NCBI GenBank assembly: GCA_964350735.1
Contig: CAYGKO010000001.1
Coordinates: 115,339-179,338, forward strand
Length of the DNA stretch: 64,000 bases
Direction: 5' to 3'
Origin: an uncultured Candidatus Saccharibacteria bacterium
GTDB taxonomy: Bacteria > Patescibacteriota > Minisyncoccia > Phycocordibacterales > UBA918
The notes under the pieces were generated by a model, which had not been told where the DNA came from, ran no database searches, and saw only the letters and a program-made list of their open reading frames with translations. Both the position numbers and the translations under genes were made by a program. Below are positions 3,683 through 60,726 of the stretch, piece after piece; position 1 is the first letter of the stretch, and each line of letters opens with the position of its first letter.

Positions 3683-3683
3683 A

Positions 3684-23044: not shown

Positions 23045-23361
23045 ATAAAGTCTTTCGGCGCCCCATCTGCACCTAGCCGTCCTTTTAAATGAGTGAGTAT
23101 CTCTTTTTTATGTAACAGAAGTTCTGATTTCAACGGCCCGCCAGATTTCAAAGTAATTATCCGAGTACTTGGTTTATATGACACATTACTCTCTTTAACT
23201 GCAATATCTAAAAGATCAGCTACAACCTCGACAAATGCTTTTCGCACACTTGCTTCTGGGGCTTTTAGAATGTTTTTATACTTAGCAAACAAATCCCCCA
23301 CCTTCACAACCTCACCACGACCAAACCTTCGCTGCTCTTTAGTTTTCTTAAAGGCAGACAT
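23041..23361 (-). CDS. Hypothetical protein downstream of dnaN (positionally DciA/DUF721-like, unverified)
   Basis: 106 aa basic protein; start overlaps the dnaN stop. Confidence 0.3.
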   Translation of the reverse strand: MSAFKKTKEQRRFGRGEVVKVGDLFAKYKNILKAPEASVRKAFVEVVADLLDIAVKESNVSYKPSTRIITLKSGGPLKSELLLHKKEILTHLKGRLGADGAPKDFI

Positions 23362-24455: not shown

Positions 24456-24791
24456 AGCTGTGCATTAATTTTTTATTTAAAACTATTATACGCTGTATTA
24501 TTAGCCCTGTGGATCTGTGTATATCTCAAATCTATGGCCTACTACATAGCTATATTTTAAGCCTTATTTTTGGTAACTACTCGAACTACTAATCCAAAAC
24601 TGTTGATTGTCTGTGTATAAGTGAGGTGGTTTTCTGTTTCTGGGGATAAGGTAGGTAGTTTTCCTCAGGGACGCAGTAGTTGTTGTAATTGTTTTAATAA
24701 ACTTGTCCCGACTGTACGCAGTACTTACTCAAGTTTTATACCCACATAGTAGTGGATAAGAAAAATGCTGACTTGTAAGTCAGCATTTTTC
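24456..24791. promoter_or_regulatory. Candidate oriC: AT-rich dnaA-dnaN spacer with DnaA-box-like 9-mers
   Basis: TGTGGATCT (24508), TGTGTATAT (24516), TGTGTATAA (24612), TGGGGATAA (24641), AGTGGATAA (24751), against the consensus TGTGGATAA. Confidence 0.45.
24761..24790 (-). terminator. Hairpin with flanking A/T runs directly after the dnaA stop
   Basis: aaaaatgctgacttgtaagtcagcattttt. Confidence 0.55.
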
Positions 24792-26388: not shown

Positions 26389-26538
26389 ATGCCTAAACGA
26401 ACCTATCAACCGAGCCAAAAAAAGCGCATGACTACTCATGGCTTCTTGGTTCGTTCAAAAAGTAAGAATGGCGCAGCTATTCTAAAGCGCCGCCGACAAA
26501 AGGGTCGAGCACAGCTTACAGTGAAAAAGAGTCGCTAA
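26389..26538 (+). CDS. rpmH: 50S ribosomal protein L34
   Basis: 49-aa ORF not in the ORF track: [45 protein letters not shown]; classical rpmH-rnpA-yidC order. Confidence 0.85.
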
Positions 26539-26586: not shown

Positions 26587-26925
26587 ATGTTGAAGAAAAC
26601 TGAGCGTCTCACAAAAAAAGAGTTTGATAAGTATTTTAAGTCTGGAAAGCGCATCCATGGTGATTTATTACAACTCATCTATTCCCCGGCTATAAATTTT
26701 AATGGAGCTGTTGTCGTCGGAAAGAAGGTACATAAAAAGGCTGTCGACCGAAACAAGCAGCGTCGTCGAATTTATAATGCGTTATATCAAATACATACAG
26801 ATCAAGAACTGAGAGGGGTGTATATCTGTATAGCAAAACCTAAAGCCGCTACAGCTTCATATTCTGACTTTAAAACTGAGCTTCTGAGTGCTATTGGTCG
26901 CCTCCATAAAACTAAGGTAGAATAG
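26587..26925 (+). CDS. rnpA: Ribonuclease P protein component
   Basis: 112 aa basic protein; RNR-like motif KKAVDRNKQRRR; synteny. Confidence 0.8.
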   Translation: MLKKTERLTKKEFDKYFKSGKRIHGDLLQLIYSPAINFNGAVVVGKKVHKKAVDRNKQRRRIYNALYQIHTDQELRGVYICIAKPKAATASYSDFKTELLSAIGRLHKTKVE

Positions 26926-26932: not shown

Positions 26933-27670
26933 ATGTTTAGTTATATTTGGCACACGTTTTTCTTCGACCCAGTGTACAACGGTCTAGTTTTCTTCATTGA
27001 TATTATTCCTGGCGGCGATATTGGTTTAGCCATCATCGCGATTACAGTAGTGGTGAAGTTGCTCTTACTCCCTCTCTCAGTGAAAGCGGCCAAGACGCAG
27101 GTGATTATGCGCGAGTTGGAGCCAAAGCTTAAAGAGATCAAAGAGAAGTTTAAAGATAAGCGTGAAGAACAAGCGCGAGCGATGATGGATCTGTATAAAG
27201 AAGCTGGACTGAATCCGTTTGCCAGTATCCTTCTAATTTTGATTCAGTTGCCAATTATTTTTGCCCTCTACTTTTCAGTTTATAGTGGTGGTGGTGTAGC
27301 GTTGCCTGAAATCAACACGGCTCTTTTATATAGTTTTATTCCCACTCCTGAGTTTGTCAGTATGATCTTCTTAGGAACGATTGATATAGCAGCTAAAAGC
27401 TGGCCCCTTGCCCTCTTAGCTGGAGTCACGCAGTTTATTCAATCACACCTAGCTATTCCTAAACCTACTCCTCGTGAACCAGGGGCTGAGCCAAGTCTTA
27501 AAGATGACTTTGCGCGTAGTATGCAGCTCCAAATGCGCTATGTAATGCCTGTGTTGATTGGTTTTGTAGCGTACTACATCTCAGCCGCCATCGCTCTATA
27601 TTTTGTAGTCAGTAATATCGTTGCTATCGCTCAAGAGCTGTACGTTCGAAAGTACAAGAGACAGAATTAA
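26933..27670 (+). CDS. yidC: Membrane protein insertase YidC (short Oxa1-like form)
   Basis: 245 aa; the conserved YidC helices and synteny after rnpA. Confidence 0.8.
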   Translation: MFSYIWHTFFFDPVYNGLVFFIDIIPGGDIGLAIIAITVVVKLLLLPLSVKAAKTQVIMRELEPKLKEIKEKFKDKREEQARAMMDLYKEAGLNPFASILLILIQLPIIFALYFSVYSGGGVALPEINTALLYSFIPTPEFVSMIFLGTIDIAAKSWPLALLAGVTQFIQSHLAIPKPTPREPGAEPSLKDDFARSMQLQMRYVMPVLIGFVAYYISAAIALYFVVSNIVAIAQELYVRKYKRQN

Positions 27671-28512
27671 GGTTTTACACAAACATATTCTGTTAGAGAA
27701 CCGACGGTCATTTCTCTTATTTCATTACCGGTTTCAGTTGCAAGTGTGGCACCTTCACATTCGTCATACCAAATATCTATAATTTCATTCTTCTCATCAA
27801 TTGATCGGCCTTCAAATTCACTAACATTAAATCTTTTAACTACTGATTTAAACTCACCAGCCTCAATTCTTTTTTGCTCTTCTTCAGCAATCACTTCACG
27901 CTCTTCTTTTGTTTTAGATAGGGTTCCAAAACTACTATCGATACACTCATATCCACTGGGAATACTGGGGTTTTTGGTATAAGTTTGATTGCAGCCACAT
28001 ACACCACCTGCTTTGGATTGGTCACAGGCTGCGTCTCGTTCTGCCCTGAATTCTATCCCCACCTCCCCCCGCGCATTAAACACACAGCCCGGCTTTGGGT
28101 TATTAGGGTCTGAAGAATCCTTCGGGCTACATATCTCTTCTAAGGCTGTAAAGTCTGTCAGCTTTGGATTAATGGTCTCTAAAATTAACACTGCTCCCAG
28201 CACAATCAGTAACCCTAACAACGCACCTTGAATTTGCTTCTTAGCCGCTCCTTTATCAGTTACCACGTCACTCAACATGTACTGAACACCAGCTAAAATG
28301 ATTCGGACTACCGCTAAGAACGCAGCGACTGAGATAGATAGAATGTAGAGTGCGTTGATGTAGCCAGCGGTAGAGAGATTGTTGGGATCGAGGCCGGGGA
28401 TGCCGACGAGTTGCACAAACCCCTCAGCCAAAACAAAATTTGGTAGGAGTAATAAAAAATTAATGAGGATTATTTTAGGAACCAATGAGATCATATTGCC
28501 AAAGTGTGCCAT
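27667..28512 (-). CDS. VirB2/TrbC-topology pilin-like protein A with Cys-rich C-terminal extension
   Basis: Signal peptide, two TM helices (ALYILSISVAAFLAVVRIILAG / ALLGLLIVLGAVLIL) separated by a short basic loop, then about 140 aa with 8 Cys; the core is 100% identical to paralogue B. Confidence 0.45.
   Translation of the reverse strand: MAHFGNMISLVPKIILINFLLLLPNFVLAEGFVQLVGIPGLDPNNLSTAGYINALYILSISVAAFLAVVRIILAGVQYMLSDVVTDKGAAKKQIQGALLGLLIVLGAVLILETINPKLTDFTALEEICSPKDSSDPNNPKPGCVFNARGEVGIEFRAERDAACDQSKAGGVCGCNQTYTKNPSIPSGYECIDSSFGTLSKTKEEREVIAEEEQKRIEAGEFKSVVKRFNVSEFEGRSIDEKNEIIDIWYDECEGATLATETGNEIREMTVGSLTEYVCVKP
28067..28411. repeat. 345-bp perfect direct repeat, copy 1 (inside pilin A)
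   Basis: Identical base for base to 30057-30401, checked line by line. Confidence 0.9.
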
Positions 28513-29641
28513 CAATTTTATTTACAAAATATAATACCCCACCCTCTTCATTCATCTGAGTAACATCAATCGGTCGATTAGAGGTGCTAAAAAGATCAAT
28601 TTTTAAGGTAGATATTCCAGTTACTAAGTTAGTTTCCCAAATAATATCTTGTGAGTTTCTATTTCCTTTATACCAATTTTCGATATAGTCCGGAGTAAGC
28701 TGTTCGGATGGTGATGCACACCATAGTGTACTGCCAATTGCGTCGCATTTTTCCGGCAGAGGTACTATCGCTAATTCAATTAAGTCAGGAAATATTTGAG
28801 CACGAGCGACTCCATATAATACTTCACCATCAGTTTCTGTAGTGATGAAATGGTCGCTGGTTGGAAACCCAACAAAACCAAAACTACTTGGAGTGACTGC
28901 TTCGAGGCTATTATTAGTTGCTTTGTATAAACTTCCTTCTAATAACTCACTCGACTTTGGATGCACAAAAACTTCTGACCCACTTTGGTAGATAATCACA
29001 TCTTGTAAACTCAGGCTCTGACTTTGGTTTTGTTCGAGCGTCTCACCATTAAAGGTAAATAACCCACTCCCCGTAGTAGTATTGGTTGAGTAACTAATCG
29101 TATTATCCCCAACAGATATATTCTCTATATTAATTGGTAGTGATCGACCAACAACAGAACCACTGCTGCCAGAGATTTCTATCCTTCCGAAAAATGTTTC
29201 ACGGATATATCCAGATTCGGATACTAAGGCCACGTATTCACCGCTGGTTGAAAAATAGGCTTCAGTGACTCGAGGAATAGTGGTGCCTGAGATTCGTCTC
29301 TCTTCCCCAGAGTCTAGGTTAATTTCGTAAATATGCCCAGTTCCATTCTCTGCGTATCGCACAAATAAAGAGGAAGTGCTTGAAACCACAGTGAAGCCTG
29401 CTACCGGCCGGAGCGTTAGTTGGCGGAGCGCTTCGCCAGAAACATCAATTAATACATCAGGATCTGGATTAACAGGATCAATCAAAATTGGATTTTCTGG
29501 TTGCTCTGTAATATCAAAACCAAAGTTTGAGAAGATACTCGTCCCAGTCTCATCAGTGTTAAAGAACATTAAGTATGCCCATAGCCCTAGTACTAGGAAT
29601 ATTACGACTATTCCAGCGATAATAAAAAGAGGTTTTTTCAC
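28475..29641 (-). CDS. N-terminally anchored beta-propeller-like protein (TolB/PD40-like repeats), T4SS-cluster member
   Basis: GTG start, TM anchor MKKPLFIIAGIVVIFLVLGLWAYL, then repeated beta-strand-rich blocks; sits between the two pilin paralogues. Confidence 0.4.
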   Translation of the reverse strand: MKKPLFIIAGIVVIFLVLGLWAYLMFFNTDETGTSIFSNFGFDITEQPENPILIDPVNPDPDVLIDVSGEALRQLTLRPVAGFTVVSSTSSLFVRYAENGTGHIYEINLDSGEERRISGTTIPRVTEAYFSTSGEYVALVSESGYIRETFFGRIEISGSSGSVVGRSLPINIENISVGDNTISYSTNTTTGSGLFTFNGETLEQNQSQSLSLQDVIIYQSGSEVFVHPKSSELLEGSLYKATNNSLEAVTPSSFGFVGFPTSDHFITTETDGEVLYGVARAQIFPDLIELAIVPLPEKCDAIGSTLWCASPSEQLTPDYIENWYKGNRNSQDIIWETNLVTGISTLKIDLFSTSNRPIDVTQMNEEGGVLYFVNKIDGTLWQYDLIGS

Positions 29642-29698
29642 GTATATAGTATACCAAGCTAGTTAACGGTAGTTTTGTATCATTCGGGATAGGTATTG

Positions 29699-30490
29699 CT
29701 ATGGTTGACTGCACTGAAATCCAGTGACGATTCCCTCTGCGTTCCTAACTTGTTTAGCACCATGACAACCGGTAGGCCTACCCGGGTTACCAGGTTGTCT
29801 GTCTTTAAATGTGCAACCACAAACTCGCTCAGCATAGTCAGCCTGCTTTTCTAGCACATTTTTTAATACCTCCCCTTGAACATCTGCTCCTTGAGAGCCG
29901 TTTAGTGCCGCCTCTTCTTCTTCAGTTAATTCAATAGTTTCAAAATCTTCATCAATCTCTATATTTTGTTCACGCAATCTCTGTGCCTCAGTTTTACTTA
30001 CAGAGCAAGCCCCATCTTCACCAGTAGCAGCACAAAATGATATAACCTCTACTCCTCCCCGCGCATTAAACACACAGCCCGGCTTTGGGTTATTAGGGTC
30101 TGAAGAATCCTTCGGGCTACATATCTCTTCTAAGGCTGTAAAGTCTGTCAGCTTTGGATTAATGGTCTCTAAAATTAACACTGCTCCCAGCACAATCAGT
30201 AACCCTAACAACGCACCTTGAATTTGCTTCTTAGCCGCTCCTTTATCAGTTACCACGTCACTCAACATGTACTGAACACCAGCTAAAATGATTCGGACTA
30301 CCGCTAAGAACGCAGCGACTGAGATAGATAGAATGTAGAGTGCGTTGATGTAGCCAGCGGTAGAGAGATTGTTGGGATCGAGGCCGGGGATGCCGACGAG
30401 TGGTTTATATGAATTGATAGTTTCTTGTCCAAATGTAGCTAGGGGTAAAAAGAATAAAATAAGTAGTAGCAGTAAACGCAAATTGAACAT
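29699..30490 (-). CDS. VirB2/TrbC-topology pilin-like protein B with divergent Cys-rich C-terminal domain
   Basis: Different signal peptide and C-terminal domain; the central 115 aa are identical to pilin A. Confidence 0.45.
   Translation of the reverse strand: MFNLRLLLLLILFFLPLATFGQETINSYKPLVGIPGLDPNNLSTAGYINALYILSISVAAFLAVVRIILAGVQYMLSDVVTDKGAAKKQIQGALLGLLIVLGAVLILETINPKLTDFTALEEICSPKDSSDPNNPKPGCVFNARGGVEVISFCAATGEDGACSVSKTEAQRLREQNIEIDEDFETIELTEEEEAALNGSQGADVQGEVLKNVLEKQADYAERVCGCTFKDRQPGNPGRPTGCHGAKQVRNAEGIVTGFQCSQP
30057..30401. repeat. 345-bp perfect direct repeat, copy 2 (inside pilin B)
   Basis: Identical to 28067-28411; offset 1990 bp. Confidence 0.9.
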
Positions 30491-30491
30491 A

Positions 30492-31448
30492 TTAAAAACG
30501 CAGTGTGAAGTTATTTTGAACCCCTTGTAGTAATTGGGTTAAGTTACGAATATGGAATTCAATTTTGAAATTGCCGTTTCCTCCACCATTTTGTAGAGTG
30601 ATAGTTTGTTGATCTTCGTTGGGGTTTTGAATCACTGATCCATTAATTGACCACTCCAGTAATGGGTTGCTTTCAAATATTGATTCATCCATGTAGTACG
30701 GCTCAGCTCGAACATCAACTTCTGGGCCAACCAAGCTGTAGACAGTGGGTACAGAAATCCGGGAGATCCCGCGCAGTGGGTTGTCGGGATAAAAATATAA
30801 TTCTGGCTGCACAGCTGGAATGACGAGGCTGTCGCTCGCAATTACTTCTCCTGTTTGAGTGAGTACATCAACTCCTAATATAGCGTCTCTACCCATCGGC
30901 ATCTGGAATTCTGCTACATGTTTACCTTTAATAGAACCTCCAAATAATACCTTGTTGTTTAAACGCCACACGTATGAGTAGTTTTTAGGGTCGGTACCGT
31001 TAATCTGCGGTAGGGCTACAGCTCGAACAGTACTGTCGGTAGAAGGTAGGGCACGACCTTTGTAGAAACTCGGTGTGAGAGTTTTTGCTTCGATAATTAT
31101 GTCTAGGCGCTGCGGTTGTAGAGTATACGTAACAGGAATAATACGGCCAACACGAGTGGTGATTTCTGCCATTATTTTATTTATTGACCCAGCCACTGGT
31201 GCCACTAGCTCAATAGTTCGATTATTAGCAGCTGGCAATAATTCTTCATCGTCAACAAACCACTTGATACTTCCACCGCTAGTATCGATAGTATAGGCAT
31301 TGAGTGACAGTTCGACAATTTCGCCTGGTTCAGGAAAACGCGGGTCAGCAATAATTGAAATATTTGTCTCGCCAGTCAATGTTTGGGCTGAACCAAAACA
31401 TGGGAATACTAATAATAACAATATAAAAATAGATCGGAATCGATACAT
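30492..31448 (-). CDS. Secreted protein of unknown function (signal peptide), T4SS-cluster member
   Basis: MYRFRSIFILLLLVFPCFGSAQT signal peptide; 318 aa. Confidence 0.4.
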   Translation of the reverse strand: MYRFRSIFILLLLVFPCFGSAQTLTGETNISIIADPRFPEPGEIVELSLNAYTIDTSGGSIKWFVDDEELLPAANNRTIELVAPVAGSINKIMAEITTRVGRIIPVTYTLQPQRLDIIIEAKTLTPSFYKGRALPSTDSTVRAVALPQINGTDPKNYSYVWRLNNKVLFGGSIKGKHVAEFQMPMGRDAILGVDVLTQTGEVIASDSLVIPAVQPELYFYPDNPLRGISRISVPTVYSLVGPEVDVRAEPYYMDESIFESNPLLEWSINGSVIQNPNEDQQTITLQNGGGNGNFKIEFHIRNLTQLLQGVQNNFTLRF

Positions 31449-31479
31449 ACTACAAGAATACCATGGGTAAATGCTGCTA

Positions 31480-32193
31480 TTACCTCGTGATGTAGGTAGC
31501 GCCAGCCCAGATAGTAGCCCACGGGAGCATTCCTCCCGAAAGAGGGGCTATAGATAGCGCTAGTAAAATTATAAAAGTGTAGGTACTCATAAAAGTTAGA
31601 AGCTTAATTTTATTCATTACGAGATAAGAAGAACACATACTAAATATCGCGATCAGAGAACTGATAAGCCATCCAACAGCGAAGAAGATATATCCAAAGG
31701 TGGCAGGATCAATAAATAAATCAAGGAAAGGAATATATTCAGTAAGAGTAGTGCCAAAAGCAGCCAGTGCCGCGCCAAATAAACTCATAACCCAAAAAGA
31801 TAAACCTAACTGCCAGCCAAGGAAAGTGATTGGTATAACAATTCGGCCTACAAATAATCTTCTCGCTACACCTCTGGCGAGACGAATCATTATATTTTGT
31901 TTTTCTGATCCCCGCGCCACTTGAGTAAACGAGTTTTGTTGATTTGGCTGTAATAGCCAGTCGTTTACATCATCATGAGATTTTTTTGCTAGTTTTTTTG
32001 TTGAGAGCGTGCGGGCTCCATATTGGACGTGATTGAATTGGCTGCTGATGTCACGCTTATCTAGATTGTCAGCCAACATTTTTGAGCGCAAGCTCATGTT
32101 TTTTCGAACAGCTGCCCGGCCTATCTTTTTAACTTTTTTAACAGCCTTGGATCCAACTACTTGTGCTGTTTCCACAATAAGAGGTGCAGCCAT
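31480..32193 (-). CDS. Membrane protein (basic N-terminal region, about 4 C-terminal TM helices), T4SS-cluster member
   Basis: 237 aa; sits directly downstream of virB4. Confidence 0.4.
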   Translation of the reverse strand: MAAPLIVETAQVVGSKAVKKVKKIGRAAVRKNMSLRSKMLADNLDKRDISSQFNHVQYGARTLSTKKLAKKSHDDVNDWLLQPNQQNSFTQVARGSEKQNIMIRLARGVARRLFVGRIVIPITFLGWQLGLSFWVMSLFGAALAAFGTTLTEYIPFLDLFIDPATFGYIFFAVGWLISSLIAIFSMCSSYLVMNKIKLLTFMSTYTFIILLALSIAPLSGGMLPWATIWAGATYITR

Positions 32194-32196
32194 ATA

Positions 32197-34008
32197 TTAT
32201 TGTTGTGCTGCTTGGAGTTCCTCGCGGGCCTTTTTGATTTGTAAAATCTGAGACGGGTCAGAAGTGATGATTTGGTCCTCGGTGTAACTGGCGATTACTT
32301 TGATAGCGACGTGTTTAAGACCAGCAAAGAAGATCCCCTCTCCGACCCCTGATTCGAGCAAGAGTAGTTTTTCTTCGTCAGTGAGATTGAAGGTATTTTG
32401 AATGTTGTCGATCGCGGTCGGCGATTGCTTCATAAGAAGTTGTAGTGATGAGTTGGTGATCATTGGGACTCCATACGGTGAGCGCAAGAAGTCATCGACA
32501 TCTTGAGTGATGGTTGAGAGACCAAGATAATATTTTCGCCCTCGCTTTGCTAACATAAATAAGAAAGAGGCTGTGTCTTCACTTTTCATCATCCACCATG
32601 CCTCGTCAATTACCAATAAGCGCTTAGTCAGACGTCGTCTGATAGCACTCCAAATATGATTAGTGATTATGTACATCGCCACTGTTTTAAGTTCGTCTTC
32701 CATGTCTCGAAGGCTGAACACTACAAACTTTTGGTTTACGTCGACATTGGTTGCTTTGTTCATGAAGCCCGACCACGTACCAGAAGTGTACTTTTGTAGT
32801 CGAGAGATTAATGAAGAGCTCCCTTCCATTCCGGCCAATACCATCTCAAAATCAGTTAACAGTGGAGGTTCAAGATCAGCAAAGTTACTGTCACCAGTGA
32901 TGTCTTTAAGGGCGTAGGTTTCTCGGAGAGCAGTATCAACAATGGTTTCTTCTTCTGGTGATAGTCCCCCGAGCATTAGGCGGAATAGACCGATGAGTTC
33001 GATGATGTGTGAGCGTAATACATCATCAGGATTTTCATCTGGTTGCGGGGCTGGCAAATCAAACGGATTGATATGATGCGAGGAAGAAAGTGAAATATTA
33101 AAGAATCGGCCACCAGTAGATTCTGCCAGGTATTCATATTCACGCTCCGGATCAATCACGATCACTTCAGTTCCAAACATCAGTGAACGAAGAATTTCAA
33201 GTTTAGTTGTGTATGACTTCCCGGCTCCAGAAGTCGCAAAAGTTACCGAGTTGTAGTTAGTGAGTTGGTAACGATCAAAAAGAACGAGACTCGAGTTGTG
33301 ACGATTAATGCCGTACAAAATACCGGTGTCTGAAGTCAGGTCAAATGAAGTGAAGGGAAAGAAACTAGAAAGCGGTGAAGAATTGAATTTGCTGTGCACC
33401 AATAGCTCGTCAGTCATAGTCGGAATGATACTCTTCATTCCTTGCTCTTGTTGGAAAAGCGCTGGCTTTAGATACACCAAGCGTGAGTCGAGCATTCCTT
33501 TTAATTCAGCTTCGGTCTTATTTAATTCAGCTTCGTCTTCACTATGAATAGCGATATAGAGACCGACATTAAATAATTTTTCCTCGGCTTGTTGGAGTTT
33601 ATCCCGCAGATCTTCCAAGTTTCGGTAGGCTGCTTCAAGTTGTGGGTCACGGACCATCCCCCGTTCGGCATTGGTATTGATCTGGCTTTGTACCTCAGCT
33701 ACTTTTTTCTGAAATTTCTTTAACGTATCAGCCGTATCAATGGGGTGAATCACGATTGAGACATCCATTTCACGTTCTAGATTAAGGATGGGTTCGAGCC
33801 AGCCATCATTCAGGTAACGAGGATATGAAATGGCAAAAAATACTCGTGAAAGCGTCCCGCTAATATTAATACTGCGGGGATTTATATTTACGGCTGAAGG
33901 GGCAATAACATCTTCAAGCGTCATTAGGGCGTTGTCACCAATATCTACGGTGTCATCAGGGTTGGTAGATGCTGGTTTCTTTGGTTGTAAAAAATCTAAG
34001 AAAGCCAT
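32197..34008 (-). CDS. virB4: VirB4/TrbE/CagE-family T4SS ATPase, ATPase (C-terminal) portion
   Basis: Walker A TSGAGKSYTT, Walker B LLVIDEAWWMM, conserved GLSTITQDVDDF motif; 603 aa. Confidence 0.8.
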   Translation of the reverse strand: MAFLDFLQPKKPASTNPDDTVDIGDNALMTLEDVIAPSAVNINPRSINISGTLSRVFFAISYPRYLNDGWLEPILNLEREMDVSIVIHPIDTADTLKKFQKKVAEVQSQINTNAERGMVRDPQLEAAYRNLEDLRDKLQQAEEKLFNVGLYIAIHSEDEAELNKTEAELKGMLDSRLVYLKPALFQQEQGMKSIIPTMTDELLVHSKFNSSPLSSFFPFTSFDLTSDTGILYGINRHNSSLVLFDRYQLTNYNSVTFATSGAGKSYTTKLEILRSLMFGTEVIVIDPEREYEYLAESTGGRFFNISLSSSHHINPFDLPAPQPDENPDDVLRSHIIELIGLFRLMLGGLSPEEETIVDTALRETYALKDITGDSNFADLEPPLLTDFEMVLAGMEGSSSLISRLQKYTSGTWSGFMNKATNVDVNQKFVVFSLRDMEDELKTVAMYIITNHIWSAIRRRLTKRLLVIDEAWWMMKSEDTASFLFMLAKRGRKYYLGLSTITQDVDDFLRSPYGVPMITNSSLQLLMKQSPTAIDNIQNTFNLTDEEKLLLLESGVGEGIFFAGLKHVAIKVIASYTEDQIITSDPSQILQIKKAREELQAAQQ

Positions 34009-34010
34009 AT

Positions 34011-34652
34011 TTATTGGTTGGGGGCGTTACCTGCAATATCGCCGGGATTGAAGATATGATAGTAGAGTTCAACTAATTCTTCGTTTTGTAAGGCGACAGT
34101 TTTAACACCAACTCGGTTGAGTCCTTGTTCGACGACAGTGACTCGTTGTTCTAGCTGAGTACGATGCTCTGCAAATGACTGATCTTCAATCACTACATTT
34201 TTCTTGGCCCCAAATAGGCTGCTAATATTGGACTTGAGATTGATATCAACTGGTGTATACGGAATTACTACAAAGAAGTTCTTGGTCATGATATCAACTT
34301 CGCTAGTGAATGTTTTCACAAACTGCATATACTCTCGGAGCTGAATCTTCATGAGGTCGTTATATTGATCATCTTCTCGGGCTGCTAACAGTCCAAGATA
34401 CGGCTTGATGTCTAGTCGTCGTGACTGCACGTAAATCTGTAATGAAAAATCAATGGTGTTTAAAAATGATTGAAACTGTCGCAAAATAGAAGCTTGTTCA
34501 TCAAGAGACTTAAGGGCAAAGTTGATAGAAGAGGCTAAGAGCACCATGTTCATCTGTCCGTTTTTTAAGACCACCACCCCATCACGAATATCTTGCACGG
34601 GGACAAACTGTTGGGTGGAAGCTTGATTTTGAGTTTTTGTTTTTGCAGGCAT
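34011..34652 (-). CDS. VirB4 N-terminal domain encoded as a separate ORF (split or frameshifted virB4)
   Basis: FVPVQDIRDGVVVLKNGQMNMVLLASSINFALKSLDEQASILRQFQSFL matches the N-terminal module of Gram-positive/CPR VirB4 homologues; TAA-AT-ATG junction with the next ORF. Confidence 0.5.
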   Translation of the reverse strand: MPAKTKTQNQASTQQFVPVQDIRDGVVVLKNGQMNMVLLASSINFALKSLDEQASILRQFQSFLNTIDFSLQIYVQSRRLDIKPYLGLLAAREDDQYNDLMKIQLREYMQFVKTFTSEVDIMTKNFFVVIPYTPVDINLKSNISSLFGAKKNVVIEDQSFAEHRTQLEQRVTVVEQGLNRVGVKTVALQNEELVELYYHIFNPGDIAGNAPNQ

Positions 34653-34653
34653 A

Positions 34654-35082
34654 TTATTTTTCTTGTTGCAGGGCTTGCAGTTCTAACTTGCGAGATAGCG
34701 AGTGGATATTACTACCTGACGTTGGTGGAACGTACGAAGCGATTGGAGTATTTCCAGTGTCTTCATTGTTGTAGAGGACGTCGGTTTTTTTTCGCCATAA
34801 GTATAAACGACTAGTACTGAAGTATTGTAAGGCGGCTTCTAAGAAGACTGAAAATGGGCGGTTATTGACTGGGTAAAACGCCAACAGAAACGCTAGGCCA
34901 GCGATTGGTAGTCCTAGTAAAACAAATACGATGAAATTAGTGGTCAAAAATAGTACTACCGCGATACCAGCCCCACCCATTAGGTAGACGAATTGCTTCC
35001 AAGTGAATGGACCAAAAATCTTATCCTCAATTTCAATAAATTGTGGTACCTCAAATCGCATAATCGTACCACTATTATACAT
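34654..35082 (-). CDS. VirB3-like small membrane protein
   Basis: Small membrane protein with a hairpin-like TM pair immediately upstream of virB4, as for VirB3/PrgI/ConD analogues; start uncertain (35112, 35082 or 35061). Confidence 0.35.
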   Translation of the reverse strand: MYNSGTIMRFEVPQFIEIEDKIFGPFTWKQFVYLMGGAGIAVVLFLTTNFIVFVLLGLPIAGLAFLLAFYPVNNRPFSVFLEAALQYFSTSRLYLWRKKTDVLYNNEDTGNTPIASYVPPTSGSNIHSLSRKLELQALQQEK

Positions 35083-35086
35083 GGCT

Positions 35087-35119
35087 AACGCGGGTGGAAG
35101 CTTTGCTTCCACCCGCGTT
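35087..35119 (-). other. Perfect 15-bp-stem hairpin inside the operon, between the acidic protein gene and the VirB3-like gene
   Basis: aacgcgggtggaagc-ttt-gcttccacccgcgtt, no T-run. Confidence 0.5.
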
Positions 35120-35124
35120 ATCCC

Positions 35125-35670
35125 CTACTCTTCTCCTTCAGTATACGACGGGGGTTTCGCCAGTCGGTCTTTTTGCAAAGCATCAGTTTGAGTACTGCTG
35201 TGCACCACCTCAGTCTCTGCTTCGTAGGCGGCATTAGCTTGTTTCAAAGCTCCATAACCGTGCACTTTTTTCATATCGTCTGACATGGTGCGGAGTGGTG
35301 TAATTCCAATTTCATCACTAGGGTTTGCAGTTCTGATAGTCGCTTTTTTATTGTTATTTTCTTCAGTTAGAAGAGGTTCAGATTCTATTCTGATCCCAGC
35401 TACATCTACTGATAGAGGAATTTTTATTAATTTTTCTAAAAATTCCTCCAGGTCATTTATTACCGATTTCTCAAGATTAATTTCATCAAAAGCAGATGAA
35501 TCACTGATACCTAAGACCCTGTCTGTGATAGTGTTTGTTATATCTATCCTAGAGTCTTGTGGTATCGCATGTTTTTCTAAAAATTCACTTATTTTATTGC
35601 TGTCAATAAAGTCTTGCACCGCTTGCGGGGCGTTTTGATAAGCCTTTGAAAATGTGTTCCAGTCTGACAT
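35125..35670 (-). CDS. Acidic soluble protein of unknown function, T4SS-cluster member
   Basis: 181 aa, no TM helix. Confidence 0.4.
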   Translation of the reverse strand: MSDWNTFSKAYQNAPQAVQDFIDSNKISEFLEKHAIPQDSRIDITNTITDRVLGISDSSAFDEINLEKSVINDLEEFLEKLIKIPLSVDVAGIRIESEPLLTEENNNKKATIRTANPSDEIGITPLRTMSDDMKKVHGYGALKQANAAYEAETEVVHSSTQTDALQKDRLAKPPSYTEGEE

Positions 35671-35680
35671 AGTTAATTAT

Positions 35681-37762
35681 TTAGGGTGAAAACCCTGCGA
35701 TAGCAAATTGACCACCATAAGAATTTCCAGTGACCCAACCACGCCAAGCACTTCGAACACTTCCTGGAGCAGTATCATAATAAGGTTGGAATTCTGCGAC
35801 TATTGATGCTAATTCAGGAGTAGATAAACCATTCTTCATTCTTTCTTGCAAGATTGCCGGTGTTAGGTATGGGTACATTGCATTTTTTGTGAATACTTCA
35901 GGGTCAATCTTACCAGCCTCTTCGTTACTCCGCGCAAACACATCACTATGTGTAATACCATGAGTCGTACTTCCAGGAGCAGCGCTAGCAACAGCAATAA
36001 ATGCATCGTTTCTCGCTTTTTTTAGACTATTTTTATCTGGGTCAGCCAGATCAAGGTCATCAATTTGTTTTGCCGATAGAGTGACAGCATTTTTTGGTTT
36101 AACCAACTCTGTAAGTGGAATAGATCCAAGCTTATCTTTACTGAGTTTACCAACATTTTTAGGCCCACTTGCTGTGCCAACAGTAGCTAGAACACCCTCT
36201 CCCCGTTTTGTCGCTAGCTGATTTCGGAATTCATCATCCAGCTGATCATTATCCATGAGAGATTTAACGTGGTCTCCTTTAAGAATGGCAGCATTTGCAA
36301 TAAGTGTTGCCCTACCATCGGCTGTTTCAGCCAGCTCTTTAATCTGGGCAGAACTTGCATTATAGAGGGCGCGTTCACGGACATCCTGATCGCTACTTCC
36401 TAAGTCTTTACGCAGGTCTCCAACAGCGATGCTTCGAGTTGCGCGCTGACGCCGTTCTGTACTTTGCTTCTCTACGTCAGCGCGCCCGAGACCACCACCA
36501 GCTTTATAGTCTCGAGCCGCGGTGAGGCCACGCCGAGTAGATTCACCACCTAATAAGGTGCGAGTTACTTTTGCTGTGGTACTACCACTTTCGGCAGCTC
36601 TATCCATACGATCCCAAAGATTGCGGACACCACCAGCAGGTAAGCCAACACCAGTTCGGTAGGCTGCCCCAGCAGCTGCTCCTCGTGCTGCATTACCAGC
36701 GCTTTTCAGGGCACCTAAGGTTGCTCCAGCGGCTGAAGAGCCCATTTTTTGGGCTATCATCATAGAAGCAATCATAAATCCAGCGGCTACAAAGAGCATA
36801 AGGAAAGCTCCAAAACTGCCATTGGCCGTATAGCCATCTTCAAAAGTAGATCCTTGTAGAGGCATTGCACGCAGAACGTTTAGTGAAATAAACATCATGA
36901 AAAGAAAAGCTGGCGCGATGAAAGCGTGTTTAAAAAATTCTGACCACCAGTATGATTGCGCTCGTTCTAATTTTGGAAAGATAAATCCAGCAAACATAAG
37001 CGGCGAAAAAATCATGAACACAATCAGCATTACAAACCGCTTCACTAAGATTAGGGCAGCGGTGGCAAAAATGAGTCCAATAATGATCATAAAAATCATC
37101 ATTAAAAATCCATACACGATTACCTTTACAGACAACCAATCAGCCTCACCACTCATCTTGCTGGCTATAGCCCCTTTATCAAATGAGCTAAACCCAAGAA
37201 CGTTCATGATTCCTCCAGAGATGCTTTTACCAGCCTCAGCTTCACCAGTTCCGATAGTTTGCCCATTGATTGTGTAACTACCAGTGATAGTAATTTGGTC
37301 GTAAATTTGGGTAGCTGCGATATTTGAAAAATCTATTATAGTTTTTGTTATTAACAAGCTGAAGTTAATAAGCAGGGCTGCAATAATAAGTTTTCCTAAT
37401 AATTTACGAGTATCTGCTTTACCTGAATCAAGAATAGTTTGAATACCAATATAGACTAACGCAAAAATAAAGAGCATATTGAGTAAATCACGCACAACTA
37501 CCCAAAGTTGATCCACTGCAACACCAACAGTAGCAGTTAAGGTGTCACCCATTTTAATAACTAGTTCAAGTATAGCGAAATCCAACAATGTCCCTCCCAA
37601 CCAAACTACAGCTCCTCCAATACCAATAAAAATAAACCAAAAAAAACTTTCAATTACTGTGCCTGCCCACGAAGTGGCGGCTGCAATTTGTGGCACAGTG
37701 GCACAAAAGAATAGAACAAGTGTGGGAAGTAGGTATTTTGTTTTTTTAGAATTTAAAAACAT
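35681..37762 (-). CDS. VirB6/TrbL-like polytopic membrane protein with long Gly/Ala-rich and hydrophilic C-terminal extension
   Basis: Signal peptide, then at least 6 TM helices in the first 350 aa, GAAxGAA tracts, roughly 300 aa hydrophilic tail; start at the internal ATG 37760-37762, which abuts the upstream gene. Confidence 0.5.
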   Translation of the reverse strand: MFLNSKKTKYLLPTLVLFFCATVPQIAAATSWAGTVIESFFWFIFIGIGGAVVWLGGTLLDFAILELVIKMGDTLTATVGVAVDQLWVVVRDLLNMLFIFALVYIGIQTILDSGKADTRKLLGKLIIAALLINFSLLITKTIIDFSNIAATQIYDQITITGSYTINGQTIGTGEAEAGKSISGGIMNVLGFSSFDKGAIASKMSGEADWLSVKVIVYGFLMMIFMIIIGLIFATAALILVKRFVMLIVFMIFSPLMFAGFIFPKLERAQSYWWSEFFKHAFIAPAFLFMMFISLNVLRAMPLQGSTFEDGYTANGSFGAFLMLFVAAGFMIASMMIAQKMGSSAAGATLGALKSAGNAARGAAAGAAYRTGVGLPAGGVRNLWDRMDRAAESGSTTAKVTRTLLGGESTRRGLTAARDYKAGGGLGRADVEKQSTERRQRATRSIAVGDLRKDLGSSDQDVRERALYNASSAQIKELAETADGRATLIANAAILKGDHVKSLMDNDQLDDEFRNQLATKRGEGVLATVGTASGPKNVGKLSKDKLGSIPLTELVKPKNAVTLSAKQIDDLDLADPDKNSLKKARNDAFIAVASAAPGSTTHGITHSDVFARSNEEAGKIDPEVFTKNAMYPYLTPAILQERMKNGLSTPELASIVAEFQPYYDTAPGSVRSAWRGWVTGNSYGGQFAIAGFSP

Positions 37763-37763
37763 A

Positions 37764-39329
37764 CTATAAACCAGAGAGGGTACATGCTGTACGTCCAACC
37801 TCGATCGCTTCTTCAAGCTCATCTTGGGCATTTTGTAATTCGTTCTCAATAAAGAGTTCGGTCACAACCAAGTCCACATCGTTTTTAATGGCCCCAGCTT
37901 GCACTAAGTCGAAGTAACGATTAAAGGCCACTTGCTGAGCCGCTGAGCTGGTGGCGGCTTCAAATTGTGACTTAATGCTATTTTCACCCCCAAGTTCATT
38001 TAAGGCCATTTCTGCAAGACTAATTTCTTGCTGGGCTTCAATACTGTGGTTAGCAAGTACCTGGAATCGATTGCGGATGGTTGGAATCTCATTGGCGAAA
38101 CAATTCAAAATACCAGTTTGCTCTTCCCCGTTTTCATCAAGGAGGGGCTCGTTAGTATTTGGATCTCTAATTACAATCGTAAATTGAGCGATAGCCTGTT
38201 CAATCTCTATGAGAGAAGACTGTACTTCTCCTCGAATTCTTTCTTGGAGTTGAATATTACGCCGTTCAACTGCAATCGATTCATCGATACTGAGTGCGTT
38301 TCCAACTACTTCGTTATTATTTATAGTTTCTTGCTCTAAAGCCGTTAAGTAATTACGTCCGCTACTTCCTGCAAATGAGGTGTCTTCGTAGCTACTCCCT
38401 CCCATGCCGAGCAGTCCGTAGGCGCCAGTCAACGCTTGTTGCGCTAGTTGCGCAAACAAAGCTCCGATGATCTCATTGATTTCATCCGCTTCGATGAGGG
38501 CTAAAGATCCCGTTTGTAATTCAAATGTCAGTTGATCAGAAATGATTTTTCCTGGGGTGGTGGTTTTACAATCCTCTTTCCCACCCGCTGCACTATCGGC
38601 GTTTTCACAAAATTCTAAGTTAAGGAAGAAATCGTTAGCAGCGAGTAGTTCCAACTTTTTCCCCTCGGCATTTTGTAAGCGAATACCCATTTCAGTACTA
38701 GCAGCTAACACTGCACCAGTTGGGTTGCTGGAAGGGTTTTGGGTTAGTTCAAACCAAGCTGGCCACCCACCTTGTGAAAAATCACCACCAAGGAAACCTT
38801 CTATATTGTCAGTAATTTCTGAGATGGTACATTGTGGTTGATAGTCGCGAGATTGTTGGTATTGGAGTGAAAGGGCAATCCGAACATCAAGCTCAAACGG
38901 GCTACATAAGAAACCAAGTTCAGTGCCATAAATGAAATCTCCGGCTACTTGATCAGCCACATCTAATAAAAATCCATCGAGGTCGGTTACAAAAGCCGGG
39001 CTACCTTGGAAGCCCGAGTTAATCCAATTAAGAATACTGGAGGTCACACCTTTAAGGACGGTTTTCATCAAACCAAAGGCAATACCATCGAGCGTAAGCT
39101 CTTTAATATTGAGGGCAGTCTGGAGACCAGTTTGGACAGTTTCAGCTGCAGCACTGATGGTTGATTCAACTGACGTTTTAATATTTGTTCCAAGGTTGGC
39201 GCTGTCTATTACTGAGAGTGCGGCGTGGGTCGTTTGCACAGATCCGTTATATGAAAATGGAGTTAAAAACAATGCAATTGTAATAAGCAGAAGAATACTT
39301 TTTTTGGTTTTTTGTATTGTTCTAAACAT
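37764..39329 (-). CDS. Secreted 521-aa protein of unknown function (signal peptide, C-terminal coiled-coil region), T4SS-cluster member
   Basis: MFRTIQKTKKSILLLITIALFLTPFSYNGS...HA signal peptide. Confidence 0.4.
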   Translation of the reverse strand: MFRTIQKTKKSILLLITIALFLTPFSYNGSVQTTHAALSVIDSANLGTNIKTSVESTISAAAETVQTGLQTALNIKELTLDGIAFGLMKTVLKGVTSSILNWINSGFQGSPAFVTDLDGFLLDVADQVAGDFIYGTELGFLCSPFELDVRIALSLQYQQSRDYQPQCTISEITDNIEGFLGGDFSQGGWPAWFELTQNPSSNPTGAVLAASTEMGIRLQNAEGKKLELLAANDFFLNLEFCENADSAAGGKEDCKTTTPGKIISDQLTFELQTGSLALIEADEINEIIGALFAQLAQQALTGAYGLLGMGGSSYEDTSFAGSSGRNYLTALEQETINNNEVVGNALSIDESIAVERRNIQLQERIRGEVQSSLIEIEQAIAQFTIVIRDPNTNEPLLDENGEEQTGILNCFANEIPTIRNRFQVLANHSIEAQQEISLAEMALNELGGENSIKSQFEAATSSAAQQVAFNRYFDLVQAGAIKNDVDLVVTELFIENELQNAQDELEEAIEVGRTACTLSGL

Positions 39330-39331
39330 AT

Positions 39332-40222
39332 TTATTCGATACTGCTAGGGAAAGATACTACCCTCTCTGTGCTGTCGGTTTGATCAAATCTTGCTCCAGC
39401 TTCATAAGCAGCATCAAAGACACCAGTAAAAGCAAAAAATAATTTTGTCGCATCATCTTGATATCGCTGCAGTCGGAGCAGCGTATACAAAGGATCTTCA
39501 AATGCTAATTTCATTGCTTCTACGTTTGTCAAAATTATTTGGTATACGTTGAGTAGATCGAGGTGTTCGTTCACTAGTTCGTTGGGAACTGGGGTACGTT
39601 TCATCTCGATCACCATTCCTTGATACGAATCAATAATGACATCTAATTCATTTAGTACTTCAGGGTTTGAACGCTGGATAGCTCTCTCCAAAATCAGCAC
39701 TTCATTTGGGGTATCTGCAGGAATTCCGTTTCTTATAGTTATATCGGCGATCTCGTTTGCGTAGGTCCGGGCTAGTTCGGGTGTTGTATTTGGCAAAATT
39801 ATTATGTCACCTCGACTAAATAATGTGTCGCTTTGCGCATCACGGACGAGGTCAGAGTTTGCTTGGGCAATTAATTCTTCTGGTGTGTCACCAAACTCAC
39901 CAAACTTTTTGTTCTGAACAATTTGCTGAAAAAAGTCCACAGCAAATTGTCCGGTGACAGTGGTTGGAGCTTCATAGGTTGAAGTCGCTATACTATCGAG
40001 TTTGATAGGCTCTTCTGTTCGAAGGGCTTCTTGCCAGTCTGGCACCCCGTTGTTATTTTTATCGTTGCTGCCAATGTAGTTGCGCAGCGGTTGATCACTT
40101 TTTGCGACCACTAACCCAGTTGGAGTACTTTCTATCTCGGCACGATTAAAATGCGTGTATGCGAATGAACCACATACTAGTAATACTCCAAAGACAACTG
40201 CTCCAAAAATGCGTGGATTCAT
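39332..40222 (-). CDS. N-terminally anchored protein of unknown function; first gene of the T4SS-like cluster
   Basis: TM anchor IFGAVVFGVLLVCGSFAY; 296 aa. Confidence 0.4.
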   Translation of the reverse strand: MNPRIFGAVVFGVLLVCGSFAYTHFNRAEIESTPTGLVVAKSDQPLRNYIGSNDKNNNGVPDWQEALRTEEPIKLDSIATSTYEAPTTVTGQFAVDFFQQIVQNKKFGEFGDTPEELIAQANSDLVRDAQSDTLFSRGDIIILPNTTPELARTYANEIADITIRNGIPADTPNEVLILERAIQRSNPEVLNELDVIIDSYQGMVIEMKRTPVPNELVNEHLDLLNVYQIILTNVEAMKLAFEDPLYTLLRLQRYQDDATKLFFAFTGVFDAAYEAGARFDQTDSTERVVSFPSSIE

Positions 40223-40292: not shown

Positions 40293-41120
40293 TTAACTCT
40301 TTAGTTTGGGGAGTGGAGCCAAGGATTCAATGAGAGGAATCCAGGTTTCCAAGGGGATATCTTCAGCCCGAATGGTGTGATTGATCGCGTGGCTAGTGAA
40401 GATCTCTTCCAAGCTTTTTCGTTCAAATGTTCCCGCTAAATTACCTAAAAGTTGCTTACGTTTTTTACCAAATCCAAGGTGTAGTAGTTCAAAAATGATG
40501 GCGGGCTCTACCTTTTGGCAGTTTTTACGAGAGATGTTTCGCACTGCAATAATGGCTGAATCCACCTTCGGTGGGGGTGTGAAATGGCCTCTCCGAACTG
40601 TCCGAACGTACTCAGGCTGACCGAATAGTTTAATTGATAGTGATAACAACGACTCCTTCTCTCCCCTCGAGAGTTCAGAGGTTGCCCGCCTCGCCACCTC
40701 TTTTTGGACCAGAAACACTAGCTGGTTCGGCTGATGTGGGGTATCAAGGAAAGTGCGAAACAACATACCGGAGAGATAGTATGGGATGTTGGCCACGACT
40801 TTATAAGGGTGCGAAACGATCGGCAGGGTTGCCAGGTCTAAAGTGCGTACATCAGAGTGAACAACCTCTAATTGCCCGTTTGTAATTTCAGTGTGAAACG
40901 TTTCGTTTAAGACATCAATAGCTCTTTGGTCTGCTTCCAGAGCCACTACAGACACCTCTCTTTTGAGTAGTTCGCGTGTTAGTGCACCAGTACCAGGTCC
41001 AATTTCGAGTATTGATTCTCCTGGTTCTAAATTCGCTGCGTCACATAACCAACGTGGAACGACCTCACTATTGAGGAAGTGTTGACCAAGTGATTTTTTG
41101 TGGGCGAATGATTCTGACAT
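40293..41120 (-). CDS. rsmA: 16S rRNA (adenine1518/1519-N6)-dimethyltransferase
   Basis: SLGQHFL, LEIGPGTGALT, IANIPYYLS motifs of KsgA. Confidence 0.85.
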   Translation of the reverse strand: MSESFAHKKSLGQHFLNSEVVPRWLCDAANLEPGESILEIGPGTGALTRELLKREVSVVALEADQRAIDVLNETFHTEITNGQLEVVHSDVRTLDLATLPIVSHPYKVVANIPYYLSGMLFRTFLDTPHQPNQLVFLVQKEVARRATSELSRGEKESLLSLSIKLFGQPEYVRTVRRGHFTPPPKVDSAIIAVRNISRKNCQKVEPAIIFELLHLGFGKKRKQLLGNLAGTFERKSLEEIFTSHAINHTIRAEDIPLETWIPLIESLAPLPKLKS

Positions 41121-43305: not shown

Positions 43306-43320
43306 TTTATAAAAACTCGA

Positions 43321-43364
43321 AATAAAACCGCCCTTCTCATTCGTGAGAAGGGCGGTTTTATTTT
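43321..43364. terminator. Strong bidirectional intrinsic terminator in the pcrA / 43458-gene divergent spacer
   Basis: aataaaaccgcccttctc-attc-gtgagaagggcggttttatttt. Confidence 0.7.
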
Positions 43365-43457
43365 GAAAACTCGTTGTCGATACGCTGGTGGGGTCTAGAA
43401 ACCGCCAGCGTGGCGCCAACGGGGCGTCACGTACATTTACAACGAGGAGGCAGTCAC

Positions 43458-59942: not shown

Positions 59943-59962
59943 TTGTCAAAAAGTTTTGACAA
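59943..59962. promoter_or_regulatory. Perfect palindrome TTGTCAAAA-AG-TTTTGACAA, the central copy of at least 5 TTGAC(A/T)A half-sites (59824-60020)
   Basis: Additional copies: tttgactaaa 59824, ttgtcaaaag 59883, tagtcaat/gtgacaaat 60000-60020. Confidence 0.35.
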
Positions 59963-60705: not shown

Positions 60706-60726
60706 TTCCCTGCTACAATACTGGTA

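Follow-up and report, generated by a model that had tools for sequence, protein, structure and literature searches.

Organization of the cluster

A 64-kb stretch of contig CAYGKO010000001.1 from an uncultured member of Patescibacteria (hereafter, the window) carries, next to dnaA, a cluster of genes whose products match type IV secretion system (T4SS) families. Twelve open reading frames (ORFs), numbered g1 to g12 by coordinate and all located on the minus strand, fill positions 27667-40222, as seen from the ORF translations of the window. The gaps within the cluster are 1-57 nt overall: 1-3 nt for g3/g4, g5/g6, g6/g7, g7/g8, and g11/g12; 10-12 nt for g8/g9 and g9/g10; 31 nt for g4/g5; and 57 nt for g2/g3. 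Apparent ORF overlaps of 41 nt (g1/g2) and 86 nt (g10/g11) are the product of over-long ORFs with TTG starts. As an independent gene call for the starts, we used a sequence-identical 10-kb metagenomic contig from Logan (ERR3534985), where g10 begins 2 nt past g11 and encodes 693 amino acids (aa), and g8 encodes 142 aa. An exact-match contig look-up with g11 gave this contig only, and one with the VirB4 gave none. The preliminary description of the window, made from the sequence alone, had reported twelve co-directional minus-strand genes with overlapping or few-nt spacings; the tight packing and the common orientation stand, and the overlaps are apparent only.

Motor and membrane core

The predicted motor of the system is g6 (32197-34008, 603 aa), the body of a VirB4-family ATPase. 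It scores 361 bits against NCBIfam NF045971 ('VirB4-like conjugal transfer ATPase, CD1110 family'), above the curated cut-off of 325, and matches P-loop_TraG (PF19044, E = 4e-26), AAA_10 (PF12846), and DUF87 (PF01935) in Pfam. The Walker A (SGAGKS), Walker B (LLVIDEAW), and GLSTITQD motifs are legible in the translation.

The adjacent g7 (34011-34652, 213 aa) is a TrsD-like protein, the equivalent of a detached VirB4 N-terminal domain. On the full-length VirB4 model NF045975 (VirB4_plasma), g7 covers positions 94-278 (E = 8e-11) and g6 covers positions 285-893. In addition, g7 matches positions 2-105 of conju_CD1110 and, below the curated cut-off, positions 9-200 of the 201 positions of TrsD (NF041427, E = 6e-6); on the identical Logan contig it is assigned to Pfam PF26593 (TraC-like). 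As g7 and g6 occupy successive parts of one VirB4 model, the term 'split VirB4' used in the preliminary description is right. The g7 ORF is separate from g6 in 79 of the 80 related loci of our comparison set (L001-L080), which were picked by VirB4 similarity from species-representative Patescibacteria metagenome-assembled genomes, all from Paceibacteria. The split observed here is the TrsD arrangement of pGO1-type monoderm systems.

Immediately upstream of the TrsD-like gene and virB4 lies g8 (34654-35112), a small membrane protein with one strong transmembrane (TM) segment. It belongs to the PrgI (VirB3-like) family PF12666 (E = 5.4e-10, 40 bits, cut-off 27) and is found in 77-78 of the 80 loci. 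The polytopic membrane protein g10 (35681-37849, likely true start at 37762) contains about 8 hydrophobic segments in addition to a hydrophilic tail some 300 aa long, and hence is described as an extended VirB6/TrbL-like protein. Ten of its 54 positional orthologs match PF04610 (TrbL/VirB6; best E = 2e-8), and the top PDB match of the family profile is TrwI, the VirB6 protein of plasmid R388 (E = 0.036). The predicted VirB6 membership of g10 rests on this ortholog family, the window protein alone being insufficient. The preliminary description had named the 603-aa VirB4 ATPase, a small membrane protein in the VirB3 position, and a polytopic VirB6/TrbL-like protein with a tail of some 300 aa; the first two are confirmed by matches above the cut-offs, and the third is borne out through its orthologs.

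The slot between the VirB6-like and VirB3-like genes is occupied by g9 (35125-35670), an acidic soluble protein of 181 aa, for which no family match was found in Pfam or NCBIfam. Nearly all related loci have in this slot an ORF of 140-260 aa without TM segments, and the shared motifs are short only. The best PDB match of the g9 family profile is IHF-alpha (E = 0.0037, others 0.4-1.7); an IHF/HU-like assignment was not used, as the match is too weak and the protein is acidic. The protein g5 (31480-32193, 237 aa), with a basic N-terminal region and 3-4 TM segments, is a lineage-specific accessory membrane protein: neither the Pfam and NCBIfam scans nor tblastn of the 80 loci yielded a match. Its slot contains an ORF with 3-5 TM segments in closer relatives and is empty in about 20 loci.

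Pilin-like proteins

Two ORFs encode VirB2-like pilins, g1 (27667-28515, 282 aa) and g3 (29699-30490, 263 aa), the latter comprising a pilin core and a Cys-rich C-terminal domain. Both have a signal peptide followed by two TM helices. Their own matches to T4SS_pilin (PF18895), with E = 2.2e-3 for g1 and 1.9e-3 for g3, are below the cut-off of 26.6. Among the pilin orthologs, 54 of 58 match PF18895 (best E = 2.4e-10), and 9 of 58 match PF04956 (TrbC/VirB2). The NCBIfam Mbov_0395 pilin-like model yields E = 0.017 with g1, and nothing was found in a PDB profile search with the pilin family. The topology of g1 and g3, together with the PF18895 matches of the orthologs, agrees with the two proteins of VirB2/TrbC topology mentioned in the preliminary description.

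The 89% amino acid identity between g1 and g3 is confined to the core; the signal peptides and the Cys-rich C-terminal domains are unrelated. These domains are about 130-150 aa long (tails at 27670-28065 in g1 and 29699-30055 in g3), and the g3 tail contains eight Cys. In the core, a block of 345 bp shows 100% DNA identity between g1 (28067-28411) and g3 (30057-30401). The edges of the block are sharp, and the identity of the sequences outside it is at the random level.

Two pilin copies are present in 4 of the 69 pilin-bearing related loci, and in three of these four the cores are near-identical: 390/391 identical positions in L004 (12432-12822 and 14534-14924), 430/431 in L006 (14799-15230 and 15889-16319), and 328/338 in L058 (13896-14239 and 14816-15162). 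The copies in L007 have diverged (151/219). An assembly artefact is an unlikely source of the identical cores, as the same pattern is seen in three independent assemblies. The further assemblies hence argue for gene conversion over a single-contig assembly error, and the sequence comparison suggests that gene conversion of the pilin cores may be recurrent.

Counted from the second TM helix, the tails of the ortholog pilins range from 13 to 274 aa, with a median of about 150 aa, and their Cys count is even in all 58 of 58 cases. In the alignment of the 58 orthologs, no similarity between the tails of different species is detectable. One ortholog tail carries a 3D domain, and one carries an SLT_3 lysozyme-like domain. 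The g1 tail has 6 matches only among 1.84 billion representative proteins. Four of the sequences were read: three are pilin-like proteins, and one is an 86-aa fragment consisting of the head alone; the remaining matches are g1 itself and the 1693-aa protein P0287.

In the F- and T-pilus structures, the C-terminus of VirB2 points outward; therefore, with the same topology, the tails would decorate the filament or the cell surface. We consider the observations on the pilin heads and identical cores to be a modest addition to the known system.

Envelope accessory proteins

Direct Pfam and NCBIfam scans of g2, g4, g5, g9, g10, g11, and g12 gave nothing, and hence ortholog profiles, built from the 80 related loci, were needed for the otherwise unassigned proteins. 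The profile of g2 (28475-29641, 388 aa) matches 12 TolB structures (E from 2e-7 to 1e-3) at profile positions 129-305, which makes g2 a predicted membrane-anchored TolB-like beta-propeller. It has one N-terminal TM segment and an invariant C-terminal Cys pair (C299 and C308), and is found in 72-73 of the 80 loci. The profile of g4 (30492-31448, 318 aa) matches the immunoglobulin (Ig)-like domains of T4 Hoc (E = 6.5e-7) and, at E = 0.009, a YSIRK/LPXTG surface protein. This predicted secreted Ig-like-repeat protein has a signal-like N-terminus, is found in 76-77 of the 80 loci directly after VirB4 or g5, and is a candidate surface or adhesion component.

Structure prediction, which the preliminary description had proposed for the unassigned proteins, was run for g11 and g12. 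The secreted or anchored helical protein g11 (37764-39329, 521 aa) has six conserved cysteines. The PDB profile search found nothing for it, and Foldseek with its model found no match at E <= 0.001 and no specific structural match. The reference fold considered for VirB5-type proteins was a three-helix bundle with a globular appendage, TraC of pKM101 (1r8i). The protein represents an orphan family confined to these loci, with a weak VirB5-like lead only.

No match to g12 (39332-40222, 296 aa) was found in Pfam, NCBIfam, and PDB profile searches. Its AlphaFold2 model (mean pLDDT 81) has a TM helix at 3-25 followed by a helical bundle, that is, an N-terminal membrane anchor and an extracytoplasmic four-helix bundle. 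Foldseek yields only weak matches to Tar-type four-helix bundles (E about 0.14) and none at E <= 0.001. Orthologs in the same position are seen in 41 of the 80 loci, detection being limited by locus ends and divergence. As a VirB8 candidate, g12 was rejected on its fold in the model and the Foldseek comparison, a four-helix bundle without NTF2. Of the five secreted or anchored proteins for which the preliminary description recognized no family, g2 and g4 are now assigned, to TolB-type beta-propellers and Ig-like-repeat proteins, respectively.

Conservation and genomic context

The VirB4 protein g6 has over 8000 database homologs, the top 120 at 83-91% identity. The named sources among these 120 are Kaiserbacteria, Paceibacterota, and Pacebacteria, the others being labelled 'TraC' or 'VirB4'. 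The closest relatives, at 84-91% identity, are all proteins of Patescibacteria (Kaiserbacteria/Paceibacteria). The nearest plasmid-borne VirB4s, from Firmicutes and Actinobacteria and annotated as the CD1110 family, show 30-35% identity.

The gene order pcrA-ksgA-g12-g11-g10-(g9)-g8-g7-g6-(g5)-g4-{pilin, g2}-yidC-rnpA-dnaA-dnaN is kept nearly without exception in the 80 loci. In the window, the upstream side is formed by ksgA (40293-41120) and pcrA/UvrD (41165-43129), and the downstream side by yidC (26933-27670), rnpA (26587-26925), rpmH (26389-26538, plus strand), dnaA (24792-26207), and dnaN (23361-24455); the identities of ksgA, pcrA, yidC, rnpA, dnaA, and dnaN are confirmed. The core-gene flanks listed in the preliminary description, ksgA and pcrA upstream and yidC, rnpA, rpmH, and dnaA downstream, are thus found at these coordinates.

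The median identity to the window protein across the loci is 70.5% for VirB4, 59% for dnaA, 58% for pcrA, 50% for yidC, 47% for ksgA, and 39% for dnaN, and only 26-31% for the outer components g2, g4, g10, and g12. In every locus VirB4 is more conserved than dnaN, yidC, ksgA, pcrA, and rnpA; it also exceeds dnaA in 42 of 61 loci. Selection of the loci by VirB4 similarity biases this comparison. The fixed order beside dnaA in about 80 species, found in the comparison of synteny across relatives that the preliminary description had suggested, together with the VirB4 conservation, therefore points to a fixed core locus and not a mobile element. The locus is most simply read as part of the core genome, inherited vertically and descended from a monoderm T4SS.

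The GC content of the cluster (0.41-0.44) is the same as that of the flanks, with no compositional anomaly. Consensus scans of the region 26-44 kb found 32 promoter matches, with 33.7 expected from shuffles, and 13 terminator matches, with 15.6 expected; as the scans do no better than shuffles, no operon boundaries were drawn. Rfam and tRNA scans found no RNA elements in the cluster.

Components absent from the window

The survey of all window ORFs from 230 aa upward found no relaxase (MOB family), no VirD4/TcpA-type coupling protein (T4CP), and no VirB11-sized ATPase, in line with the preliminary description, which had seen none of the three in the 64 kb. There are also no matches in the window to the diderm outer-membrane core proteins VirB7, VirB9, and VirB10. 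The absence of VirD4 holds for the 64-kb window only, because VirD4-like genes are found far from virB4 in most Patescibacteria genomes (PMC12102498). The only T2SSE-family ATPase of the window, of PilB size (14035-15795, plus strand, 586 aa), is unlinked to the cluster and stands alone upstream of ruvB. PilM (73-1167, minus strand) is likewise unlinked, and both are components of a type IV pilus system distinct from the T4SS. The nearest candidate cell-wall remodelling enzyme is a LysM-LysM-peptidase M23 protein (47971-48903, plus strand), at a distance of about 8 kb.

Comparison with known systems

In a survey of 3,035 Patescibacteria genomes, VirB4 was reported in 2,417, as a clade that is nested within MPF-FATA (Quinonero-Coronel et al., 2025, Microb Genom, PMC12102498). 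According to the same study, TrsD, PrgI/VirB3, VirB6, and VirB2-like pilins are encoded near virB4; relaxases are nearly lacking; the Paceibacteria locus adjoins dnaA, dnaN, rnpA, ksgA, and rpmH; VirB8 is rare outside class ABY1; and pilins show at most 54% identity within an array. The window has the same features, that is, a VirB4 that probably falls in the CPR (Candidate Phyla Radiation) clade, with TrsD-, PrgI/VirB3-, VirB6-, and VirB2-like neighbours, beside dnaA, dnaN, rnpA, rpmH, and ksgA, without a relaxase or T4CP nearby, and no fundamental difference was found. By their family matches, the components, i.e., PrgI, TrsD, and CD1110-family VirB4, are assigned to the monoderm (MPF-FATA) type.

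The system is thus already known, and the window is an instance of the published Paceibacteria locus type. The preliminary description was right in calling the cluster T4SS-like, as the ATPase and the VirB3-like, VirB6-like, and pilin-like proteins match T4SS families, and in relating it to an apparatus of reduced-genome (CPR-like) bacteria, as the named closest VirB4 relatives are CPR and the locus type is described in PMC12102498; its reading is right but not novel, because the system has been published in PMC10633639 and PMC12102498. Several details were not found in PMC12102498, as far as searched: the hypervariable pilin tails of about 150 aa with even Cys numbers; the identical cores of pilin paralogs, for which that study gives at most 54% identity within arrays; and the assignments of g2 as TolB-like and g4 as Ig-like.

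Functional data come from a homologous locus in Candidatus Southlakia epibionticum ML1 (SEML1_0006-0019), which is essential for epibiotic growth and lacks a coupling protein and a relaxase (Wang et al., 2023, Cell, PMC10633639); comEC is dispensable there, while the T4SS is essential (PMC10633639, PMC12857230). The two loci share VirB4 (DUF87), a gene in the TrsD position (hypothetical in S. epibionticum), PrgI, a VirB6-like protein, and PF18895 pilins, and both are of the monoderm type without a recognizable relaxase or coupling protein. In S. epibionticum, however, the pilins number six and are short (about 125-140 aa), and the locus also encodes an NTF2-like (VirB8-like) protein, a lysozyme, and a peptidase, whereas the cluster studied here has two long pilins with C-terminal domains and TolB-like, Ig-like, helical, and four-helix-bundle accessory proteins, with no VirB8- or VirB1-like protein detected. 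The classes also differ: Paceibacteria here and Saccharimonadia for S. epibionticum.

The MPF-FATA systems of Firmicutes (PrgH-PrgI-PrgJ of pCF10; TrsC/TrsD/TrsE of pGO1; CD1110-family ATPases of C. difficile integrative and conjugative elements, ICEs) share with the cluster the order VirB6-like, VirB3-like, VirB4 and the TrsD-type detached VirB4 N-terminal domain; g6 scores above the CD1110 cut-off, and the plasmid VirB4s are 30-35% identical to it. In contrast to these systems, the cluster has no PcfC/VirD4, relaxase/oriT, PrgK/TrsG-type hydrolase, or PrgB-type adhesin, and it occupies a fixed chromosomal position and is inherited vertically, whereas their loci are mobile. To our knowledge, monoderm conjugation systems lack VirB2-like pilins; such pilins are present here.

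ComB of H. pylori and archaeal Ced, in which a VirB4-family motor without a relaxase or coupling protein moves nucleic acid inward, provide a functional analogy for uptake (cited in PMC11665869). ComB, however, is a diderm system of VirB2-4 and VirB6-10, unlike the one described here; the partial match to CedB is weak (4e-9, 36 bits with a cut-off of 700), and as CedB and CedD are far below their cut-offs, there is no membership in these families.

Function and alternative interpretations

With a probability of about 0.8, the cluster is a Patescibacteria-type T4SS with a non-conjugative, host-interface role. In the proposed mechanism, the split VirB4 would sit on a platform of PrgI/VirB3 and VirB6, pull pilin from the membrane, and polymerize it into a short pilus or tube, with the variable C-terminal heads displayed on its outer surface. 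The heads, together with the Ig-like g4 and the anchored propeller g2, would engage the host cell envelope, and the apparatus, rather than conjugating, would connect episymbiont and host through a conduit that depends on contact. At a parasite-host interface, tubes that may be T4SS pili have been seen (2026 preprint, bioRxiv 10.64898/2026.06.21.733656).

Several points weigh against this interpretation. For this lineage the pilus is a prediction, and C-terminal domains of about 150 aa may be too bulky to fit VirB2-type helical packing. The matches of g1 and g3 themselves to the pilin family are below the cut-off, the Pfam search gave no direct match for g10 itself, and the conservation of VirB4 is subject to the selection bias mentioned above. 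No VirB8-like (NTF2-fold) protein was found in family scans of g1-g12 or among the models, which cover g11 and g12; no VirB1-like hydrolase, i.e., no SLT, CHAP, NlpC, or M23 domain, was found in g1-g12. Further, as VirD4-like genes are located elsewhere in most Patescibacteria genomes, export might proceed via a distant T4CP. Finally, the functional data would have to be carried over from one Saccharibacterium with a differing locus, none of them coming from Paceibacteria.

As to what passes through such a conduit, effector delivery and uptake of nucleotides or DNA have both been proposed for Patescibacteria T4SSs (PMC12857230, review, 2025; PMC11665869, perspective, 2024).

Members of the phylum Patescibacteria cannot synthesize nucleotides. 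Uptake of host macromolecules (nucleic acids or other building blocks) is our tentative choice, slightly ahead of export and adhesion, because no coupling protein is linked to the cluster, because of this inability of the phylum, and because in S. epibionticum the T4SS is essential while ComEC is dispensable.

Export of protein effectors is somewhat less likely. In this case, the cluster would be an effector or toxin exporter like Bordetella Ptl or Brucella VirB, without a coupling protein, delivering effectors into or onto a host bacterium or archaeon for nutrients. Effector translocators without a T4CP do exist (PMC12857230), the authors of the Saccharibacteria study favour protein export or 'an alternative capacity' (PMC10633639), and the operon encodes secreted proteins without an assigned function, g4 and g11. 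However, g4 and g11 are of structural type and conserved in nearly every locus, unlike variable cargo, and no effector candidates with toxin or enzyme domains were found in the cluster; the direction of transfer is not indicated by anything in the sequence. A purely adhesive role is unlikely.

A degraded or integrated conjugative element (an ICE remnant), or a conjugation system with its relaxase and coupling protein elsewhere, would have DNA export as its job. The cut-off exceeded by g6 is that of a conjugal-transfer family, and the closest VirB4 relatives outside CPR are on plasmids, mostly predicted to be conjugative; moreover, T4CP homologs are present in most Patescibacteria genomes, remote from virB4, and 109 relaxases are known in 103 of the 3,035 genomes (PMC12102498). 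The window also encodes a XerC/D-type recombinase (60670-61644), but it is 20 kb off and looks like a chromosomal XerC/D, and neither a relaxase, nor a T4CP, nor an integrase is adjacent to the cluster. In about 80 species the cluster keeps its place, with ksgA on one side and yidC/dnaA on the other, which is unlike a mobile element; VirB4 is conserved above the flanking housekeeping genes, no compositional anomaly is seen, and in S. epibionticum the T4CP is non-essential, whereas the T4SS genes are essential (PMC12102498). We consider this explanation highly improbable; the doubt raised in the preliminary description, that the cluster would be a classical conjugative element, is upheld by the fixed core position and by the lack of a relaxase and T4CP among the window ORFs surveyed.

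Another envelope machine (Tad or type IV pilus, type II secretion, sporulation or cell-division apparatus) might be suggested by PilM and the PilB-type ATPase in the window and by the resemblance of g2 to TolB of the Tol-Pal division system, but it is effectively refuted by the specific matches of the ATPase and the VirB3-like, VirB6-like, and pilin-like proteins to T4SS families, given also that the cluster contains no T2SSE/PilB, PilC, prepilin, or prepilin peptidase, that the type IV pilus genes are unlinked and 13-27 kb off, and that the likeness of g2 to TolB is limited to the beta-propeller, with TolA, TolQ, TolR, and Pal absent.

Within the preferred interpretation of a non-conjugative, host-interface T4SS, a more specific and rather improbable version may be formulated. 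Each subunit of a VirB2-type filament would carry a hypervariable disulfide-bonded C-terminal head that sets the host range; gene conversion of the DNA-identical core would keep the paralogs assembly-compatible, so that one filament could bear several heads; and, with the ultra-conserved VirB4 and no coupling protein, the filament would act as a feeding tube importing host nucleic acids or other macromolecules.

Other features of the window

The search for DnaA boxes (TTATCCACA, at most 1 mismatch) found 18 sites in the window, with 15.5 expected; there is no overall enrichment, and only local clusters are seen. One cluster, at 24612-24759 in the dnaN-dnaA spacer, consists of three imperfect boxes. 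The other, at 59.8-60.3 kb, consists of three DnaA-box-like 9-mers, one of which (at 60253) is the sole perfect TTATCCACA of the window. These 9-mers fall in a region of about 1.2 kb (59400-60670) that has no convincing ORF and lies between a gene for a TrmB-like regulator (58644-59399) and the XerC/D-type recombinase gene (60670-61644).

The divergent spacer between pcrA and an ORF of 370 aa (43374-44486) contains, at 43320-43363, a hairpin whose 20-bp stem is perfect (8 GC pairs) and which precedes a T-run; it falls within a probably spurious ORF of 141 aa. A 616-aa ORF (51726-53576, minus strand) with one TM segment and a long Pro/Thr/Ala-rich low-complexity region (repeated TPAP) has no Pfam match and adjoins a DksA-sized ORF and the PNPase gene (53623-55752). 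The 285-aa ORF at 2878-3735 (minus strand) overlaps tRNA-Ser (3425-3510, plus strand), has no family match, and is probably not a gene.

Implications for Patescibacteria

Patescibacteria constitute a large share of bacterial diversity and are host-dependent, and the T4SS is near-universal in them (about 80% of genomes); no other T4SS is known to be essential to the growth of its owner. The window does not present a new system, but it is a clean Paceibacteria example with testable details. The conserved motor, the fast-evolving outer parts, the variable disulfide-rich heads, and the concerted evolution of the pilin cores together indicate that the interface under evolution is that of host recognition, and these details suggest specific constructs for structural and binding studies. 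If the cluster does work as a feeding tube with hypervariable heads, both this way of using a T4SS and this way of diversifying pilins would be undescribed so far.

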